The notes under the pieces: generated by a model
Told to the model about the DNA's origin: nothing
What the model saw: only the letters and a program-made list of their open reading frames with translations
Database searches by the model: none
In this document: one piece after another, positions 9,296 through 37,669 of the stretch
How positions within the stretch are numbered: the stretch's first letter is position 1
Layout: the number at the start of each line of letters is the position of its first letter
Assembly: GCA_905236245.1 (NCBI GenBank)
Contig: CAJOPC010000004.1
Span: forward strand, 6,079-70,078
Length of the DNA stretch: 64,000 nt
Source of the DNA: an uncultured Alphaproteobacteria bacterium
GTDB taxonomy: Bacteria; Pseudomonadota; Alphaproteobacteria; CAAHEQ01; UBA3637
Direction: 5' to 3'
Program-made: the position numbers and the translations under genes

Positions 9296-9324
9296 TTGAC
9301 AATAAAATTATAATGCGTTATAAT
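9296..9324 (+). promoter_or_regulatory. Consensus sigma70 promoter for tRNA-Leu (TTGACA-17 bp-TATAAT)
   Basis: TTGACA at 9296-9301 and TATAAT at 9319-9324. The tRNA 5' end lies about 20 nt downstream. Confidence 0.7.
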
Positions 9325-9343
9325 GGCGCTTGTCAACAAAAAA

Positions 9344-9430
9344 GCCTCTGTGGCGAAATTGGTAGACGCGACAGACTCAAAATCTGTTTCCAGCGATGGA
9401 GTGCTGGTTCAAGTCCGGCCAGAGGTACCA
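9344..9430 (+). tRNA. tRNA-Leu (anticodon CAA) with long variable arm and encoded CCA
   Basis: Acceptor stem GCCTCTG/CAGAGGT. Anticodon loop CT-CAA-AA. Long extra arm. TTCAAGTCC T-loop. The 3' end is ...AGAGGTACCA. Confidence 0.9.
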
Positions 9431-9500
9431 ATAAAAATACCGTCCAATTTGGGACGGTTTTTCTTTTTGTTTCCAAGCGCTTGTGCTGGCTCGATAACAG
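9426..9500. repeat. Direct repeat copy 1 (tRNA-Leu 3' end plus downstream terminator), att-like
   Basis: gtaccaataaaaataccgtccaatttgggacggtttttc... is repeated at 10328..10402. The first 39 nt differ at 3 positions. Confidence 0.7.
9436..9468 (+). terminator. Rho-independent terminator after tRNA-Leu
   Basis: CCGTCC-aatttg-GGACGG hairpin followed by a T-run. Confidence 0.7.
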
Positions 9501-9608
9501 TTCGCATTACTAGACTAGATTTTCGTCATTTATCGAACTCATAAAACAACGCAATTCGTTACAGAAGCCTAAAATAAATTGTTTTAAAAGTATTCACTCT
9601 AGCTTTTG

Positions 9609-10184
9609 CTATGAATCTAAGATCTCCGAAAGAAGTTGTGGAAAAGTATTGTATCCTGCCGCCGAGTTAAAATGTCCTGCTTGTTGAACCATTTTAATTT
9701 CTGCTTCAATTTTTTGTGCAAAATCAAGCGATACAGAGTTAGGAACATAAGGGTCATTTTCTGAAATAAAACACATTCTTTTTTCAGATAAGTTGGCCAC
9801 TTCTTGAAAATCATTTTTAATGAAAAATGGCTCATTTATAAGATCAAACTCAGGCGCATGTAATTTTTGGTATAAGGGGGCAACGAAATAGAGCCCTTTA
9901 ACTTTTAGCTTCGTATCCAGCAGATAATCTGTAATAAAAGCAGGGCCTAAACTATGCCCAATAAAGGATGTTTGAGCCCCAAAGAAAGGACGATAAACAT
10001 CCAAAACGCGAAACCAATTTTCATAATTTTGAAAGCCTATTCCGCAAGGAAATTGTGGAACTAAGACATTATAGCCTTTGGATTCCAACTGTTGAAAAAG
10101 CCAAGGAAACCAATTCTCAAATGGGGAGCCATAGCTTCCATGCACTATCACAAAATCATACACTTTTTCTTTAGTTTCAGACAT
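9609..10184 (-). CDS. Alpha/beta-hydrolase fold serine hydrolase (YqiA/RBBP9-like)
   Basis: GHSLG nucleophile elbow and a conserved VIVHG N-terminus. Size 191 aa. Confidence 0.6.
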   Translation of the reverse strand: MSETKEKVYDFVIVHGSYGSPFENWFPWLFQQLESKGYNVLVPQFPCGIGFQNYENWFRVLDVYRPFFGAQTSFIGHSLGPAFITDYLLDTKLKVKGLYFVAPLYQKLHAPEFDLINEPFFIKNDFQEVANLSEKRMCFISENDPYVPNSVSLDFAQKIEAEIKMVQQAGHFNSAAGYNTFPQLLSEILDS

Positions 10185-10274
10185 TTTTTATCCTTTCCTT
10201 GAATGGGTATTATTTTAGCCGAGTTATAAATATTTTGCAACTAAAATTAAAACTTCAATAGGTCAATTTGCTGT

Positions 10275-10300
10275 GCCAATTTTTTGAAATCCTCTAAATT
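10275..10300. repeat. 26-bp direct repeat copy A (gccaattttttgaaatcctctaaatt)
   Basis: 23 of 26 positions identical to 11716..11741. The two copies flank the acyltransferase gene. Confidence 0.55.
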
Positions 10301-10327
10301 GTTAGCCCGATATTCTGTAAGTATGCA

Positions 10328-10402
10328 GTACCAATAAAAATACCGTCCAATTTGGAACGATTTTCCTTTACCTTTCCAAGAGCTTATGCGGGTTCGATTG
10401 TG
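10328..10402. repeat. Direct repeat copy 2 (duplicate of the tRNA-Leu 3' end and terminator region, no tRNA body)
   Basis: gtaccaataaaaataccgtccaatttggaacgattttcc..., about 75% identity over roughly 75 nt with 9426..9500. Confidence 0.7.
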
Positions 10403-10591
10403 GGGACGTAAAAAAGGCTCAAAAACCGTAAATCATCGGATTCTTAAAATTTATTTCTTTAAAAAATCAATCAGTTAAATAAATTCCAGCCCAATCAGAA
10501 TTCCAACAATTAACAAGAAATTGAATAGTCTATTGTATTTTATAGAGTAATCTGATACGATAAAAAAGATAAAGAAAGAATAAAAGATTAT

Positions 10592-11665
10592 ATGAAAAAT
10601 GAAAATGAAATTTGGATTAGTGTTTTAACAGCAATTTCATGTATTGCTGTTGTGTATTTACACGTAAATAACATTTTTTGGCAGCACCCTAACGGCCTTT
10701 TGTGGATTACCTCAAATATTATAGAATGTTTATTTTACTTTGCAGTTCCTATATTTTTAATGATTACGGGATATACTTTATCAGATTATAGGGAAAGATA
10801 TGACACAAAAACATTTATAAAGAAGAGAACGATACGTACATTTATTCCTTTTATTTTTTGGTCATCTGTCTTTTTCTTTGTTTACGGGAAAAGAAATTTT
10901 TTTAACAGCATAATTAACATTGAAATAGAAAAAATATATAAATTTTTTCCAGGCTTATTCTCTTGCTATTTAGCTATTATATTCCTTAGTCTTTTTCAGA
11001 GTAAAAAGAAAATTTTCAGTTGGCTTTTTTTATGGTGCTTTATCAGCTATTCAATTATTCCTTTTTTAAGGAAATGTGGTATCTTACATATTTCAGATGC
11101 ATGGAAAAATCCAATTGGTTGCAGTTATTTACTATTTATTTTTCTAGGATATACTTTAGGACATGCAAAATTTCAAAAAAAAGAAAGAATATTACTATAC
11201 ATTTTAGGCTTGATAGGCTTATTATCTCATATAATTGGAACGCATTTGAATTCCCCACCAGATGGACGCATAAGTTTACTCTTTAAGGGATACAGGAATT
11301 GGCCTTGTGTTCTTTATTCTACTGCAATATTTATTTATTTTAAGTATTCTGATTGGACTTTTCTAACAAAAAATAAAATACTGACTCGATTATTGGAAAC
11401 TGTCATTTCATGCAGTCTTGGAATTTACTTAGTCCATGGTTATTTTGTATATCACTTGCTGCCAAGTATTTTTACTAAATTTGGGCATAAAGTTTTTGTT
11501 AACTCAAATTACTATAGAATTATCGCCCCCCTTATCATTGTATTAGGAATAGCTTTCTTAATTATAGCCGTTTCAAAACTCATCCCTTCAAAATTTCACT
11601 GCTTATTAGGTTATAAAAAAATAAAATTGACAAGAACCGAGCTTGATCTTAATAAAAAAAGTTGA
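10592..11665 (+). CDS. Acyltransferase family 3 membrane protein (O-acetyltransferase of surface polysaccharide/LPS)
   Basis: About 10 TM helices and an N-terminal motif typical of acyltransferase_3 proteins. Very AT-rich codon usage. Confidence 0.65.
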   Translation: MKNENEIWISVLTAISCIAVVYLHVNNIFWQHPNGLLWITSNIIECLFYFAVPIFLMITGYTLSDYRERYDTKTFIKKRTIRTFIPFIFWSSVFFFVYGKRNFFNSIINIEIEKIYKFFPGLFSCYLAIIFLSLFQSKKKIFSWLFLWCFISYSIIPFLRKCGILHISDAWKNPIGCSYLLFIFLGYTLGHAKFQKKERILLYILGLIGLLSHIIGTHLNSPPDGRISLLFKGYRNWPCVLYSTAIFIYFKYSDWTFLTKNKILTRLLETVISCSLGIYLVHGYFVYHLLPSIFTKFGHKVFVNSNYYRIIAPLIIVLGIAFLIIAVSKLIPSKFHCLLGYKKIKLTRTELDLNKKS

Positions 11666-11715
11666 TTTGGAATGTCAGTGTTCTGAATTAAAATTTCAAG
11701 AGCTCCATCTGCAGG

Positions 11716-11741
11716 GCCAACTTTTTGAAATCCGCGAAATT
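11716..11741. repeat. 26-bp direct repeat copy B (gccaactttttgaaatccgcgaaatt)
   Basis: See copy A. Confidence 0.55.
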
Positions 11742-11847
11742 TGAGTTTTGGTATTATCCAAGCTAATTACGCTATAAAACACAAATTTATGTTGACAAAT
11801 TCTGTCATAATACAGTACGCTAGTGTCACTAGTTTGGGTTGTAACAC

Positions 11848-13377
11848 ATGTATTTGAAGTTTTTCTTTTGTTTTTTTATTATATTGCTGCTACCTCTTTG
11901 GTCGGTGACTTTTCGGAGCGATTTTTTGTCTTTAATGGCCGGGCTTTCTTTTCTAATGGGGATTTTTTGCTTCACCTTGTCATCTGTTTCAATCTTAAAA
12001 AGAATAAAATATCTTAAATTTTTAAGGATTTTTATTTTAATATCTTCAAGTATATTTTACATCCTATATCTAATTCCAATATCCACAGTTTTTCAAGGTC
12101 TCACTTCCAACGATATTGTCGCTGTTTTTCAAACAAATGGAGCCGAAGCATTTGACTATCTTGCAGACAACTTAAAAATTTATGTGTTCATTCCTTTGGC
12201 CACTATTTTGGCTATCTTCATCTGTCTATGTATCAAAAATGTAGATAAATATTGTTTTGTTAAAAATCAAAAAGAAGCTGTTTTATTCTTACTTGCCAGC
12301 ATTGTTTTTATATGGTTCTACCAAACTAATGCGCTCACTATACCGATATACGATGCCGCTGATAAAATTGAACGATATTATGCCTTCTATAATAATTTAA
12401 AAAACAGAGAATATCCCAAATCCATAGAAAAAAACACCAAAGAAGGAATTTATGTCGTCGTTATTGGAGAAAGTCAAAATAGAGATTTTATGTCCGTTTA
12501 CAAACCTACCGAATACGATACGACACCTTTTTTATCAAGTATAAAATCAAGCAAAAATTGGTTCTTCTTTGATAATGCTTACTCTTGCCATGTTTATACC
12601 ATCGCAACATTAACTTACGCATTGACCCAAAAAAATAACTATAACAATTTGGACCTTTCAGAAAGCTATTCCATTGCGCATATGTTACATGAATTCGACA
12701 CTTACTGGCTCAGCAATCAAAAAGCAGTCGGCTATTACGGCGAACAAATAGCAGAAATTGGCCTACAAACAAAACATTCAACATTTATTAATAAATCCTT
12801 CGTCAAAGGGGATCCATATGATGAAGAACTCTTAAAATACCTGCCCAAAGAATCATCGTTAGTAAAAACAACTATTATATTTATTCATTTAATGGGAAAT
12901 CATCCAAATTATCGCAAAAGATATCCTGAAAAATTTGAAAAATACCCCAATACTTATGCCAATTCAATTTTATATAACGATTATATTGTTGAACAAATAT
13001 ACAATCATTTTGCATCCATGCGCAATTTTTCAGCTTTGATATATTTTTCAGATCATGGAGAAGATACAGAATGTGCCTGCCACAATCCTTCTAAATTTAC
13101 ATGGGAGATGACAAAAATTCCTTTTTATATCTATTTATCAGATAATTATATCAAACAACATCCTCAAAAAATTAGTACATTAAAAAAACATTTACATACC
13201 CCTTTTACAAATGATTTGTTCTTTGAAACATTTTTAGGCATATTAGACATTACAGACAAAAGATTTTACGCGCCAGAAAATGATCTTTCCAACTCCAATT
13301 ATAATCATACAAAATCAGATTTGACTACTTTTCATGGAGAAAAGAGTTTAGCCGAATATACAACCATAATACCATAA
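11848..13377 (+). CDS. Phosphoethanolamine transferase (EptA/LptA-like sulfatase-fold membrane protein)
   Basis: N-terminal multi-TM domain plus a periplasmic sulfatase domain with YVVVIGESQNRD and HLMGNH motifs. Very AT-rich. Confidence 0.7.
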   Translation: MYLKFFFCFFIILLLPLWSVTFRSDFLSLMAGLSFLMGIFCFTLSSVSILKRIKYLKFLRIFILISSSIFYILYLIPISTVFQGLTSNDIVAVFQTNGAEAFDYLADNLKIYVFIPLATILAIFICLCIKNVDKYCFVKNQKEAVLFLLASIVFIWFYQTNALTIPIYDAADKIERYYAFYNNLKNREYPKSIEKNTKEGIYVVVIGESQNRDFMSVYKPTEYDTTPFLSSIKSSKNWFFFDNAYSCHVYTIATLTYALTQKNNYNNLDLSESYSIAHMLHEFDTYWLSNQKAVGYYGEQIAEIGLQTKHSTFINKSFVKGDPYDEELLKYLPKESSLVKTTIIFIHLMGNHPNYRKRYPEKFEKYPNTYANSILYNDYIVEQIYNHFASMRNFSALIYFSDHGEDTECACHNPSKFTWEMTKIPFYIYLSDNYIKQHPQKISTLKKHLHTPFTNDLFFETFLGILDITDKRFYAPENDLSNSNYNHTKSDLTTFHGEKSLAEYTTIIP

Positions 13378-13400
13378 AAATACTTAAATAAAGAAATAAA

Positions 13401-13922
13401 ATGGCCAACAGGAAAATCTTTTTAAAACAACTTTCAAATAGTTATCAGCTTAGACGCTTAACAAAAGAGGATATTTCCTGCGTTTTAGAATTATGCAAAG
13501 GAAATCCATATTATTATAAACATTGTCCACCATCTCCAACGCCGGAAAACATCAAACGAGATATGCGGGCACTACCTCCCAGGACAACAAAAAAAGACAA
13601 AAGATATATTGGATTTTTCCAAGGCGCCGAATTAATTGCCGTTATGGATTTAATTTTCAATTATCCGAATTCTGAAACTTGTTTTATAGGATTTTTTATG
13701 ATGAATAAGAAATATCAAGGTCAAGGCATCGGCTCTCAGATTATTCAAAACGCGTTGGAATATTTAAAAAATTTTTATAAAACTGTTCGCTTGGGCTATG
13801 TTTCCACCAATGAACAAGCAAAAAGGTTTTGGTTAAAAAATGGTTTTAAATACACCGGCAAAGAATATCGAGACTCTCAATATCTTTATGTTGTTAAAAT
13901 AATGGCCAAAGAATTAAAATAA
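13401..13922 (+). CDS. GNAT family N-acetyltransferase
   Basis: GFFMMNKKYQGQGIGSQII acetyl-CoA binding motif (Q/RxxGxG/A). Confidence 0.7.
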   Translation: MANRKIFLKQLSNSYQLRRLTKEDISCVLELCKGNPYYYKHCPPSPTPENIKRDMRALPPRTTKKDKRYIGFFQGAELIAVMDLIFNYPNSETCFIGFFMMNKKYQGQGIGSQIIQNALEYLKNFYKTVRLGYVSTNEQAKRFWLKNGFKYTGKEYRDSQYLYVVKIMAKELK

Positions 13923-14092
13923 TTATATATGAATTTTTCCACTTGCTTTTGATAAAAAAAAGAATTAAACTGGCAAAGTTTGGATACTAGGAGGGATATG
14001 AGACCGTTGGCCAACGCAAGTTTAATTCATGGCGGCCGTTTAGAAAACGGATATGGTTTTGCCCCCTCAAAACAAGATTTAATGACTATGGA

Positions 14093-14125
14093 AAACTCTC
14101 TAATACACCAGAGAGTTTTTTCGTT
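14093..14125 (+). terminator. Intrinsic terminator-like hairpin plus T-run in the pyrG leader (candidate attenuator)
   Basis: CTCTC-taatacacca-GAGAG followed by TTTTTTCGTTTT. It ends about 18 nt before the pyrG ATG. Confidence 0.55.
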
Positions 14126-14142
14126 TTATGAAAGGGTATAAG

Positions 14143-15789
14143 ATGACAAAGTATGTATTTATTATTGGTGGTGTTGTTTCTTCTTTGGGCAAAGGAATTG
14201 CTTCGGCATCCACAGGTGCTTTATTAAAAGCCAGAGGTTATTCTGTTCGTATGAGAAAAATGGATCCTTATTTGAACGTAGATCCGGGCACTATGTCACC
14301 TTATCAACACGGTGAAGTTTTTGTCACAGAAGACGGCGCAGAAACGGATTTGGATTTAGGCCACTATGAACGTTTTGCAGATGTCAATTGTCATAAAACG
14401 GACAGCATTTCTGGAGGCAAAATTTATTTTAACGTTTTACAAAAAGAGCGTCGAGGTGATTATTTGGGGGCAACAGTTCAAGCTATTCCCCATGTCACAA
14501 ATGAAATCAAAGAATTTTTAAGATCAGATTTACATGGTGAAGATTTTGTGTTGTATGAAGTGGGCGGAACAGTCGGAGATATTGAAGGCACTTTGTTTTT
14601 GGAAGCAGTTCGTCAATTTGCTAACGAAGTGGGGCGCCAAAATGTGTGCTTTTTGTTTTTAACATTGCTCCCTTATATTTCTACTGCAGGCGAGTTGAAA
14701 ACGAAACCCACTCAACATGCAGTGAGGACTTTGATGGAGGCCGGAATTCAAGCGGATATTTTGTTGTGCAGAAGTAAAATGAACTTGGGGCCAGAAGAGC
14801 GCAGAAAATTAGCGCTGTTTTGCAATGTTTCGCCGGAGGATGTTATTATGGCCTTAGATGTAGATAACATCTACAAAATTCCTTTGGTTTATCATGAGCA
14901 AGGCTTAGATGTTCAAATTTTGAAACATTTTAATATGTTAGAACAAGCCCCCGAACCAGATTTAAGTGGCTGGAACAAAATTATTCATACTTGTTCCAAT
15001 TATGAAAAAGATGTCAAAATTGCTGTTGTAGGGAAATACTGTGGATTGTTGGAAGCGTACAAATCATTGAATGAGGCATTGGTTCATGCTGGCATAGCCA
15101 ATCACGCAAAAGTAAAAGTGACTTGGTTAGAGGCCGAACAATTTGAGGATCTTTCACAAGAGCAAGTGAATGAGCAATTAAAACCCTACTCAGGCATTTT
15201 AATACCTGGAGGTTTTGGCGTGCGTGGCATTGAAGGAAAAATTAAAGCTATCCGCTATGCAAGAGAAAATAAAGTTCCTTTCTTTGGTATTTGTCTAGGG
15301 ATGCAAATGGCCGTCGTAGAGGCCTGTAGATCATTACTAGGCATAGAAAATGCAGGGTCAGCGGAATTTGGGAGTCATTATATTCCAGTTGTTTCTAAAA
15401 TGAAAGTTTGGGAACAAGATGGGAAAAAACAAATTCGTGCAGACAACAGTGATTTAGGCGGCACAATGCGTTTAGGGGCCTATCCTTGTGTCCTGAAAAA
15501 AGGATCTTTGGCCGCGCAAATTTACAATGGAGTGACGGAAATCCAAGAACGCCATCGCCATCGGTATGAAGTGGACATGTCCTATGCACAACAATTAGCC
15601 GAACATGGAATGGAAATTTCTGGAAAATCTCCAGATGATTTATTGCCAGAAATTGTTGAAATTCCTGAACACCCATTTTTTATCGGTGTGCAATTCCATC
15701 CAGAATTTACATCCAGACCTGGTCGCCCTAATCCTATTTTTAAAGCATTTATTGAATCGGCCCTTAAATATGTAGTAACCGACTCATAA
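14143..15789 (+). CDS. pyrG: CTP synthase
   Basis: [19 protein letters not shown]-terminus. Glutamine amidotransferase domain with GICLGMQ and HPEF motifs. Alternative upstream start at 14128. Confidence 0.95.
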
Positions 15790-37593: not shown

Positions 37594-37669
37594 TGGTGCC
37601 TGGAGACGGAATCGGACCGCCGACACAGGGATTTTCAGTCCCTTGCTCTACCAACTGAGCTATCCAGGC
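37594..37669 (-). tRNA. tRNA-Phe (anticodon GAA), CCA encoded
   Basis: The reverse complement reads GCCTGGATAGCTCAGTTGGTAGAGCAAGGGACTGAAAATCCCTGTGTCGGCGGTTCGATTCCGTCTCCAGGCACCA. It has a 7-bp acceptor stem and a CT-GAA-AA anticodon loop, and closely resembles E. coli tRNA-Phe. Confidence 0.92.

Follow-up and report, generated by a model that had tools for sequence, protein, structure and literature searches.

We examined the region between a tRNA-Leu(CAA) gene and pyrG in a 64 kb stretch of DNA (64,000 nucleotides, nt; called the window below, and the reference for all coordinates given without a locus name) from an uncultured Alphaproteobacteria bacterium. The window belongs to a metagenome scaffold (ENA ERZ28573572, GLEN20-2), and its closest named homologues are labelled only 'MAG: Alphaproteobacteria bacterium' (MAG, metagenome-assembled genome). 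Between the two genes lies a tandem array of two one-gene cassettes, bordered by the halves of a repeated module that we term D1 (right half) and D2 (left half), followed by a two-gene block. The features of the locus are as follows, with related loci elsewhere in the text designated by L numbers.

9344..9430, plus strand: tRNA-Leu(CAA), found by ARAGORN and as Rfam tRNA (56.6 bits); the proximal anchor of the array.
9425..9546, plus strand: D1a, the right half-module adjoining the tRNA, with GTACCA, an intact hairpin, a tRNA-like tail and about 50 nt more of the module.
9609..10184, minus strand: alpha/beta hydrolase of 191 amino acids (Ser_hydrolase, PF06821; Pfam 3.6e-20), the cargo of cassette 1.
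10245..10326, minus strand: D2a, a left half-module with the remnant of a short minus-strand frame that ends ...LTEYRANNLEDFKKLAQQIDLLKF and a stop.
10328..10565, plus strand: D1b, the right half-module of cassette 2 (nhmmer score 195).
10592..11665, plus strand: membrane O-acyltransferase of 357 amino acids (Acyl_transf_3; Pfam 9.4e-21), the cargo of cassette 2.
11647..11777, minus strand: D2b, the left half-module past the acyltransferase (nhmmer score 82).
11782..11823, minus strand: an extra partial copy of the right part of D2 (YCIMTEFVNINL; tblastn of the D2 peptide, E 2e-7).
11848..13377, plus strand: EptA/CptA-like membrane protein of 509 amino acids with a Sulfatase domain (Pfam PF00884, 1.3e-28), distal cargo.
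13401..13922, plus strand: GNAT N-acetyltransferase of 173 amino acids (Pfam PF00583, 2.7e-12).
13932..14142, plus strand: conserved pyrG leader (blastn, 80-85% identity beginning at 13932/13933), the distal edge of the variable region; PyrG begins at 14143.

An earlier reading of the letters alone (the original prediction) had placed only the alpha/beta hydrolase between two direct repeats, with the acyltransferase-3, phosphoethanolamine-transferase and GNAT genes beyond, and the Pfam and NCBIfam results agree with that arrangement. The first repeat, D1, spans 71 nt with 86% identity (9425-9495 and 10328-10398) according to the repeat finder. It begins 6 nt inside the tRNA-Leu gene, with GTACCA (9425-9430), and its first 39 nt match at 37 positions, confirming that the 3' end of the tRNA gene (6 nt) and its terminator are duplicated 0.9 kb downstream with a near-identical start. 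GTACCA comprises the only tRNA bases common to the inter-cassette modules, and the homology of the tRNA-proximal copy to the internal modules starts exactly there; the remaining 65 nt of D1 are sequence from downstream of the tRNA, consisting of the terminator and a tRNA-like relic. The second repeat, D2, aligns over 56 ungapped nt with 82% identity (10245-10300 and 11686-11741), and comparison with relatives extends it to about 82-130 nt (10245-10326 and 11647-11777). The 26-bp repeat that had been described on both sides of the acyltransferase gene is real, with 23 of 26 positions identical, and is only the core of this longer repeat.

With D2a running to 10326 and D1b from 10328, the two repeats abut. 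A single inter-cassette module is thus repeated, with D1 as its right half and D2 as its left, in place of the two separate repeat pairs that had been supposed. At a cassette-cassette junction, where D2 abuts GTACCA and D1, the module is about 0.35 kb long; at the start of the array the 3' end of the tRNA stands where D2 would be. The layout of the window is a tandem array, D1-hydrolase-D2 and D1-acyltransferase-D2, after which comes the eptA-like/GNAT block. In full, the order is tRNA, D1a, hydrolase (minus strand), D2a, D1b, acyltransferase (plus strand), D2b, the partial D2 with GTACGC, eptA-like gene, GNAT gene and pyrG leader.

We consider it very improbable that these repeats are not real, whether as chance A/T-rich matches, as copies of a dispersed element resembling repetitive extragenic palindromes or miniature inverted-repeat transposable elements, or as the product of a chimeric assembly of two strains. 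The region is indeed AT-rich and known from metagenome assemblies, in which many related contigs break near the tRNA. However, neither repeat was reproduced in any of 100 shuffles, which answers the concern about chance matches raised with the original prediction. A 28-nt D1 probe, allowing up to 3 mismatches, had only two matches in the 64 kb (0 of 100 shuffles gave two or more), and D2 was unique in the window by probe and by nhmmer. The nhmmer profiles of D1 and D2 found no further copy in the window or outside the tRNA-Leu locus in relatives, and a dispersed intergenic repeat was ruled out on that ground. The longest exact match between repeat copies is only about 28 nt, homologous arrays occur in other samples, and the same proteins in the same arrangement are present on four independently assembled contigs (NCBI, ENA and Logan assemblies), which makes a chimeric assembly unlikely. 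The D1 and D2 repeats are therefore non-random and locus-specific.

Relatives whose SDR is 78-88% identical keep the gene order der-bamB-yfgM-SDR-tRNA-Leu(CAA), and most of them have pyrG shortly beyond. The interval between the tRNA and pyrG differs among them as follows.

L016: about 120 nt from the tRNA terminator to the conserved pyrG leader; an empty site.
L014: 4.3 kb, with a 192-amino-acid membrane protein, a 181-amino-acid protein, a GNAT, an IMPDH-family protein and an Abhydrolase_2 protein.
L017: 2.9 kb, with an Abhydrolase_2 protein, a methyltransferase, a NUDIX protein and a 245-amino-acid protein.
L044, which shares its sample with the window: a pair of paralogous membrane-protein genes in module-separated cassettes, and a gene for a 159-amino-acid protein.

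Compared across these relatives, the block is absent from L016, whose flanks are 77-80% identical to the window, and is replaced in L014, L017 and L044 by 2.9-4.3 kb of genes unrelated to those of the window. A metagenome scan for the 3' end of the tRNA yielded 22 more loci, many of which end a few hundred bases past the tRNA; across about 15 relatives, the first gene past the tRNA is of at least 10 kinds. Divergence begins at, or no more than 33 nt past, the CCA end of tRNA-Leu(CAA), leaving the tRNA intact, and homology to the window resumes at 13932/13933 in the pyrG leader (L014, L016 and L044), ahead of a PyrG protein with 91-93% amino acid identity. Because homology is lost at the end of the tRNA and returns at the pyrG leader, the block between them is accessory DNA in a hypervariable insertion hotspot.

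The base composition of the block also sets it apart, as the original prediction had held. Sliding-window guanine-plus-cytosine (GC) content was 26-33% across approximately 10.2-13.5 kb, compared with about 38-43% in most of the flanking sequence, and the three genes with the least GC among the 49 in the window are those for the acyltransferase, the eptA-like protein and the GNAT. The acyltransferase gene is the lowest of all (28.3%, z -3.2), followed by the eptA-like gene (30.7%, z -2.5) and the GNAT gene (32.6%, z -1.9); the GC at third codon positions of these three genes is less extreme than their overall GC. The GC content of the hydrolase gene is ordinary for the genome (z -0.9).

A single island of 9.4-13.9 kb, brought in by one integration event and since deprived of its integrase, with D1b as the attR scar and D2 as an unrelated duplication, would fit the position at the 3' end of a tRNA, the direct repeat that includes tRNA bases, the low GC and the empty site in L016. 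Nevertheless, D1b lies 0.9 kb from the tRNA, inside the block and not at the far end of its AT-rich part, and the D1 pair encloses the hydrolase gene of ordinary composition while the AT-rich genes lie outside the pair. In addition, D2 and D1 are contiguous, their composite flanks the acyltransferase gene on both sides in other genomes, and the cassettes occur independently of one another. The recurrence of the composite contradicts a single island, which we regard as improbable. Of the original proposal of site-specific integration at a tRNA end followed by decay, the left boundary at the 3' end of the tRNA and the accessory nature of the block stand, and the single event gives way to a tandem array.

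The composite D2-GTACCA-D1 junction occurs once in the window, twice each in L043 and L042, and once in L044. In L043 and L042 it is found on both sides of homologues of the acyltransferase (76% and about 81% amino acid identity, respectively), with a repeat spacing of 1440 and 1444 nt, compared with 1441 nt in the window. This cassette of about 1.44 kb holds different ranks, being second in the window, last in L043 and apparently the one nearest the tRNA in L034, where 238 nt match as far as the end of the contig. In L014 and L044, D2 marks the right end of the gene that follows D1, and in L044 the composite D2-GTACCA-D1 lies between its two cassettes. Four types of site can be distinguished.

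tRNA-GTACCA-short native flank: attB-like, the empty site; L016.
tRNA-GTACCA-D1: attL-like; many loci.
D2-GTACCA-D1 between cassettes: attP-like; the window, L042, L043 and L044.
D2 at the distal end: attR-like; L043, L014, L044 and the window.

After the distal D2 of L043 come GTACCA, D1 and the spacer also present in the empty site of L016. The distal D2 copies of L014, L044 and the window (at 11818) lose homology precisely at the GTACCA position. The extra D2 piece of the window runs into GTACGC (11818-11823) with no D1 beyond, forming the last module-like junction; this hexamer is a mutated GTACCA core. The anatomy of the modules, the polymorphism of the site and the recurrent breakpoint are direct observations. 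On the strength of the four site types and the varying rank of a cassette, repeated site-specific insertion is favoured.

Two of the related arrays show further peculiarities. At L044 6990-9214, where the reverse strand has the orientation of the window, the tandem cassettes code for paralogous membrane proteins of 222 and 218 amino acids; the two share identical or almost identical upstream modules, first 10 codons and last approximately 25 codons around middles that have strongly diverged, a mosaic suggestive of gene conversion or of diversifying selection on a variable domain. At L042 2013-3086, the acyltransferase homologue aligns with the window protein over its full length in one frame but has an in-frame TGA about 46 codons in, and gene calling split it in two; the cassette is otherwise intact, and the gene is a probable pseudogene.

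The D1 half-module combines a terminator, tRNA-like sequence and a promoter-like segment. In D1a, the terminator hairpin (9439-9458) is intact (-12.6 kcal/mol, z -2.7) and was also found in the terminator scan, and the tRNA-like tail TTTCCAAGCGCTTGTGCTGGCTCGAT follows at 9470-9495. The D1a region is 88% identical to L026/L032 over 9341/9344-9546/9539, the tRNA included. D1b consists of GTACCA (10328-10333), a decayed terminator hairpin of only -4.2 kcal/mol, the tRNA-like tail (10373-10398), a decayed second tRNA-like piece at about 10484-10520 and a promoter-like segment upstream of the acyltransferase gene. It matches the tRNA-downstream region of L034 (238 nt, 78%) and of L014 (150 nt, 75%), and the match to the tRNA-downstream region of relatives runs to just before the acyltransferase gene. 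The sequence past the tRNA in most relatives is conserved as a terminator hairpin, then TTTCCAAGCGCTTGTGCTGGTTCGAT, then about 200 nt more, and full D1 copies carry a promoter-like TTGTAT...TGGTATAAT directly before the cassette gene.

Over 65 nt of non-coding sequence, D1 is 91-95% identical in genomes where the adjoining SDR gene is only 72-75% identical at the nucleotide level; the SDR protein identity in those genomes is 60-81%, with about 60% in the most distant. The sequence of the hairpin varies by lineage (ACCGTCC/GGGACGG, ACAACTCCC/GGGAGTTGT and others), and a T-run follows it. RNAalifold on D1 missed the terminator, since the hairpin types are out of register in the alignment; in single-sequence folds, the hairpins tested, three copies of two sequence types, gave strong structures of -12.6 to -15.1 kcal/mol. 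D1 classes show no linkage to cargo. In the block of the window and in the L044 array, Rfam found only tRNA.

Positions 41-67 and 63-80 of tRNA-Leu have collinear counterparts in two pieces of D1 (p about 0.002-0.03 relative to shuffles). These tRNA-like fragments, corresponding to the variable arm/T-loop and the T-loop/acceptor, lie downstream of the terminator in the window (9470-9495 and 10373-10398), at approximately 1896-1922 in L042, and past the tRNA-Leu in L028 and L031. The pieces are fused in L031 and lie about 88 nt apart, with AGTTCGA on either side of the intervening stretch, in L028 and most other loci. This configuration points to an old insertion in the T-loop of a second class-II tRNA copy that is now truncated, and together the pieces and the approximately 88-nt insert of L028 look like typical debris of integration into tRNA genes.

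The D2 half-module has a different character. It contains an open frame on the minus strand, ending ...(E)YRANNLEDFKKLAxQxxLLKF and a stop codon. Among six copies, 12, 4 and 17 variable columns fall on codon positions 1, 2 and 3, respectively, and synonymous codon differences number 76 in this frame compared with 24 and 10 in the other frames. Given this codon-position and synonymous pattern, D2 appears to be coding, or to have been so until recently. The stop codon is conserved, and the start codon is inconsistent between copies: D2a has ATA at the position of the ATG in L014. D2b keeps the C-terminal frame (...NFADFKKLALQMELLKF and a stop), with a degenerate right part. In relatives, D2 copies are located at L014 8772-8899, L044 6724-6847 and 7954-8090, L042 3065-3195 and L043 1695-1827. 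The D2 peptide had no Pfam match even at E=10, and the idea that D2 is the C-terminus of an integrase, with 'EYRA' resembling the region of the catalytic Tyr, was rejected on that result and is pure speculation. A decayed 3' half of a tRNA was dismissed for lack of significant similarity (p 0.1-0.7).

We lean, with modest confidence, towards tandem accretion of integrase-less cassettes at the 3' end of the tRNA by repeated site-specific integration. Small circular cassettes would integrate time and again at a GTACCA-containing site by the 3' end of tRNA-Leu, through a recombinase acting in trans, encoded elsewhere in the genome or since lost, with the crossover at GTACCA. Each integration would yield tRNA-GTACCA-D1 (attL-like), D2-GTACCA-D1 (attP-like) and D2 joined to other sequence (attR-like), and recombination between modules would later shuffle and homogenise them. 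The array in the window would now be fossilised or decaying, an appearance it owes to the broken terminator of D1b, the lost start codon of D2a and the rearrangement of D2b.

Several observations weigh against this scheme. No integrase, resolvase or transposase, and no Phage_integrase or Resolvase match, was found in the block (as the original prediction had stated) or in 40 open reading frames (ORFs) of at least 150 amino acids in the 64 kb window, and no recombinase family is listed among the called genes of related arrays where gene calls existed. The duplication takes in just 6 nt of the tRNA, against the 15-50 nt or more of the gene duplicated by classical tRNA-targeting elements. No clear inverted-repeat, dif/Xer-like or palindromic core was seen around GTACCA, judged by eye only. 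The 'terminal' GTACCA is poorly kept in L014 and L044, and the eptA-like/GNAT block has neither D1 nor D2 borders. The codon-like conservation of D2 is not accounted for by accretion. Finally, within the window D1 is homogenised over its first 39 nt, and the modules of L044 differ over their first 65 nt and are identical over at least the next 250; such mosaic modules indicate that homologous recombination or gene conversion is clearly at work.

The competing explanation is a homologous-recombination hotspot of the 'minimal mobile element' type, in which the tRNA, pyrG and the modules serve as anchors and no dedicated recombinase takes part. Imported DNA (by transformation or gene-transfer agents) or sister copies would replace, duplicate or loop out cassettes in the manner of RecA, and D2-GTACCA-D1 would have arisen once by illegitimate tandem duplication and then spread. 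This explanation agrees with the failure to find a recombinase anywhere near, with a variable region bounded exactly by the very conserved tRNA and PyrG, with the mosaic modules and the near-identical ends and diverged middles of the L044 cassettes, and with D1 classes being unlinked to cargo; given one junction, repeats of 70-290 nt could generate every array seen. However, it does not predict one shared end point of homology, at the GTACCA boundary, for all tRNA-proximal copies and three independent terminal D2 copies. Moreover, most of the length of the modules shows only 75-86% identity between copies in one genome, a poor substrate for RecA, and in distant genomes the module is better conserved than the flanking core gene. 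We judge recombination of this kind alone to be possible and, on balance, unlikely. We infer that site-specific integration fits better, with homologous recombination through the modules as a serious rival.

The search for a parent element with the same att specificity, from which cis-mobilizable units would derive by deletion, was made in a limited space, and no integrative and conjugative element (ICE) or integrative and mobilizable element (IME) was found in about 50 related loci, viral contigs, and plasmid and phage collections. The IMG/VR viral contigs gave 0 matches for the tRNA 3' end, the junction pattern and the D2 pattern, and the whole block had no blastn match in the plasmid or phage collections; a phage or plasmid origin was set aside on these results.

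The array invites comparison with integrons, which combine an IntI integrase, an attI site with a Pc promoter, attC sites that are imperfect palindromes, and promoterless cassettes in one orientation. As in integrons, single-gene cassettes are split by a repeated site-like element, and the same cassette occurs at different positions in the array. In contrast, there is here no intI and no attI next to an integrase, and the array starts at a tRNA gene. The modules, at about 0.35 kb, are not attC-like and are palindromic only in the terminator hairpin, and the cassettes stand in both orientations with their own promoter-like sequence and terminators. A bolder variant of site-specific insertion, which seems to us doubtful, would make the locus an integron-like capture platform: one-gene cassettes, each with terminator, promoter and D2-GTACCA-D1 half-sites, would be inserted at the 3' end of tRNA-Leu(CAA) by a recombinase encoded elsewhere and would circulate among genera of uncultured Alphaproteobacteria-like bacteria, and the D2 frame would code for a working micro-protein or form the displaced end of the recombinase or of an accessory gene.

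Cis-mobilizable elements (CIMEs) of the Streptococcus ICESt1/ICESt3-type islands exemplify the tandem accretion of decayed integrative elements at tRNA or other 3' gene ends (PMC5704250). Like them, the array keeps attL/attR-like borders (GTACCA-D1 ... D2-GTACCA) without genes for integration or transfer, and its units follow one another in tandem from the 3' end of a conserved gene with repeated att sites between them. It differs from them in that the units are tiny (0.9-1.4 kb, one gene), no parent ICE/IME or integrase was seen in any relative, and the border, about 0.35 kb long, brings a terminator and a promoter and shares no more than 6 nt with the target gene. The ssrA islands of Dehalococcoides are also arranged in tandem, with 20 bp repeated from the 3' end of ssrA as border and strain-specific content; many lack an integration module and are proposed to be cis-mobilizable, and 16 carry a serine-recombinase module (PMC3146451). 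The two systems share tandem units past one tRNA-like gene, extra conserved bases by the repeat and an opposite-strand reading frame that overlaps the att repeat. The Dehalococcoides islands are, however, much larger, with a 20-bp ssrA repeat and serine-recombinase modules, none of which were seen here.

The minimal mobile elements of Neisseria (Saunders & Snyder 2002, as cited in PMC1797815) are, in the terms of that citing article, alternative small cassettes of up to three genes at one syntenic site between conserved genes, without mobility genes and often with surface- or defence-related cargo, and the locus described here resembles them in these respects. They differ in being exchanged via conserved flanks, in having no internal att-like modules or tandem arrays, and in not being tRNA-anchored by definition. 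Islands linked to tRNA genes, accretion and hotspot cassettes are already known. What is distinct here is the one-gene cassettes, the 0.35-kb border with terminator and promoter, the minimal overlap with the tRNA and the codon-constrained border segment, together with the lack of any recombinase found in many genomes of this uncultured lineage.

Should the modules be true recombination sites, the locus would represent a compact, tRNA-anchored form of cassette capture outside the integron paradigm in a poorly known, uncultured lineage, moving envelope-modifying genes (for O-acylation and phosphoethanolamine-type modification) that bear on evasion of phages and host immunity and on resistance to cationic peptides. 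D2-GTACCA-D1 offers a searchable signature for mining metagenomes for cassettes and for the missing recombinase. If homologous recombination alone is responsible, the locus would be a clean non-Neisseria 'minimal mobile element' hotspot organised by repeated intergenic modules.

The cargo of the window would vary the cell envelope, judging from the families of its proteins (an O-acyltransferase, a phosphoethanolamine-transferase-like protein, a GNAT and a small hydrolase). The acyltransferase is predicted from its family to O-acylate surface glycans as a membrane Acyl_transf_3 enzyme. The Sulfatase-domain protein is tentatively placed with the EptA/CptA phosphoethanolamine transferases, although its scores (NCBIfam CptA 6e-36 and EptA 6e-29) are below every NCBIfam family cut-off. 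The GNAT gene starts 23 nt past the stop codon of the eptA-like gene, and the two form a probable operon. The original description of the cargo as surface and lipid A modification holds, in that it is envelope-modifying by these predictions and AT-rich. In relatives, the cargo at the site includes membrane proteins, an MFS-like transporter, GNATs, DUF3768 and Fic, and with this range the tRNA-Leu/pyrG site would serve to diversify envelope and accessory functions. Homologues of the hydrolase (57-73% identity) occur elsewhere, in unrelated neighbourhoods without modules, and the gene was of no use as a guide to a donor. A BamB search of the genome collection returned only distant planctomycete PQQ-repeat proteins.

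The pyrG leader, about 210 nt long, is conserved in L014, L016 and L044 (78-85% over alignments that run into pyrG). It contains a small hairpin at 14036-14050 and, directly before the pyrG start, a terminator-like hairpin with a T-run at 14090-14121 (-12.6 kcal/mol), together with a called ORF of 47 amino acids (13998-14141), whose 'AN..L....R..NGY.FAP' segment is conserved in L016. The leader had no Rfam match and is a candidate transcription attenuator or leader peptide for pyrG. Gene order past pyrG is not conserved among relatives: in L016, a tRNA-Phe lies directly downstream of pyrG, followed by a hairpin similar to the D1 terminator (5 mismatches in 28 nt; 2133-2250), and the tRNA-Phe of the window (37594-37669) is 22 kb away. 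In L048 and L049 (GCA_965342675.1 and GCA_965339155.1; SDR 78%), the tRNA-Leu is followed by an ABC transporter gene and dnaX, not pyrG, so the tRNA-Leu/pyrG pairing is confined to a subclade. On the other side of the tRNA-Leu gene, two promoters that match the sigma-70 consensus perfectly (12/12 each) face each other and overlap at 9296-9336. The plus-strand promoter (TTGACA-17-TATAAT) is 20 nt upstream of the tRNA-Leu gene, and the minus-strand promoter (TTGACA-18-TATAAT) is upstream of the SDR gene.

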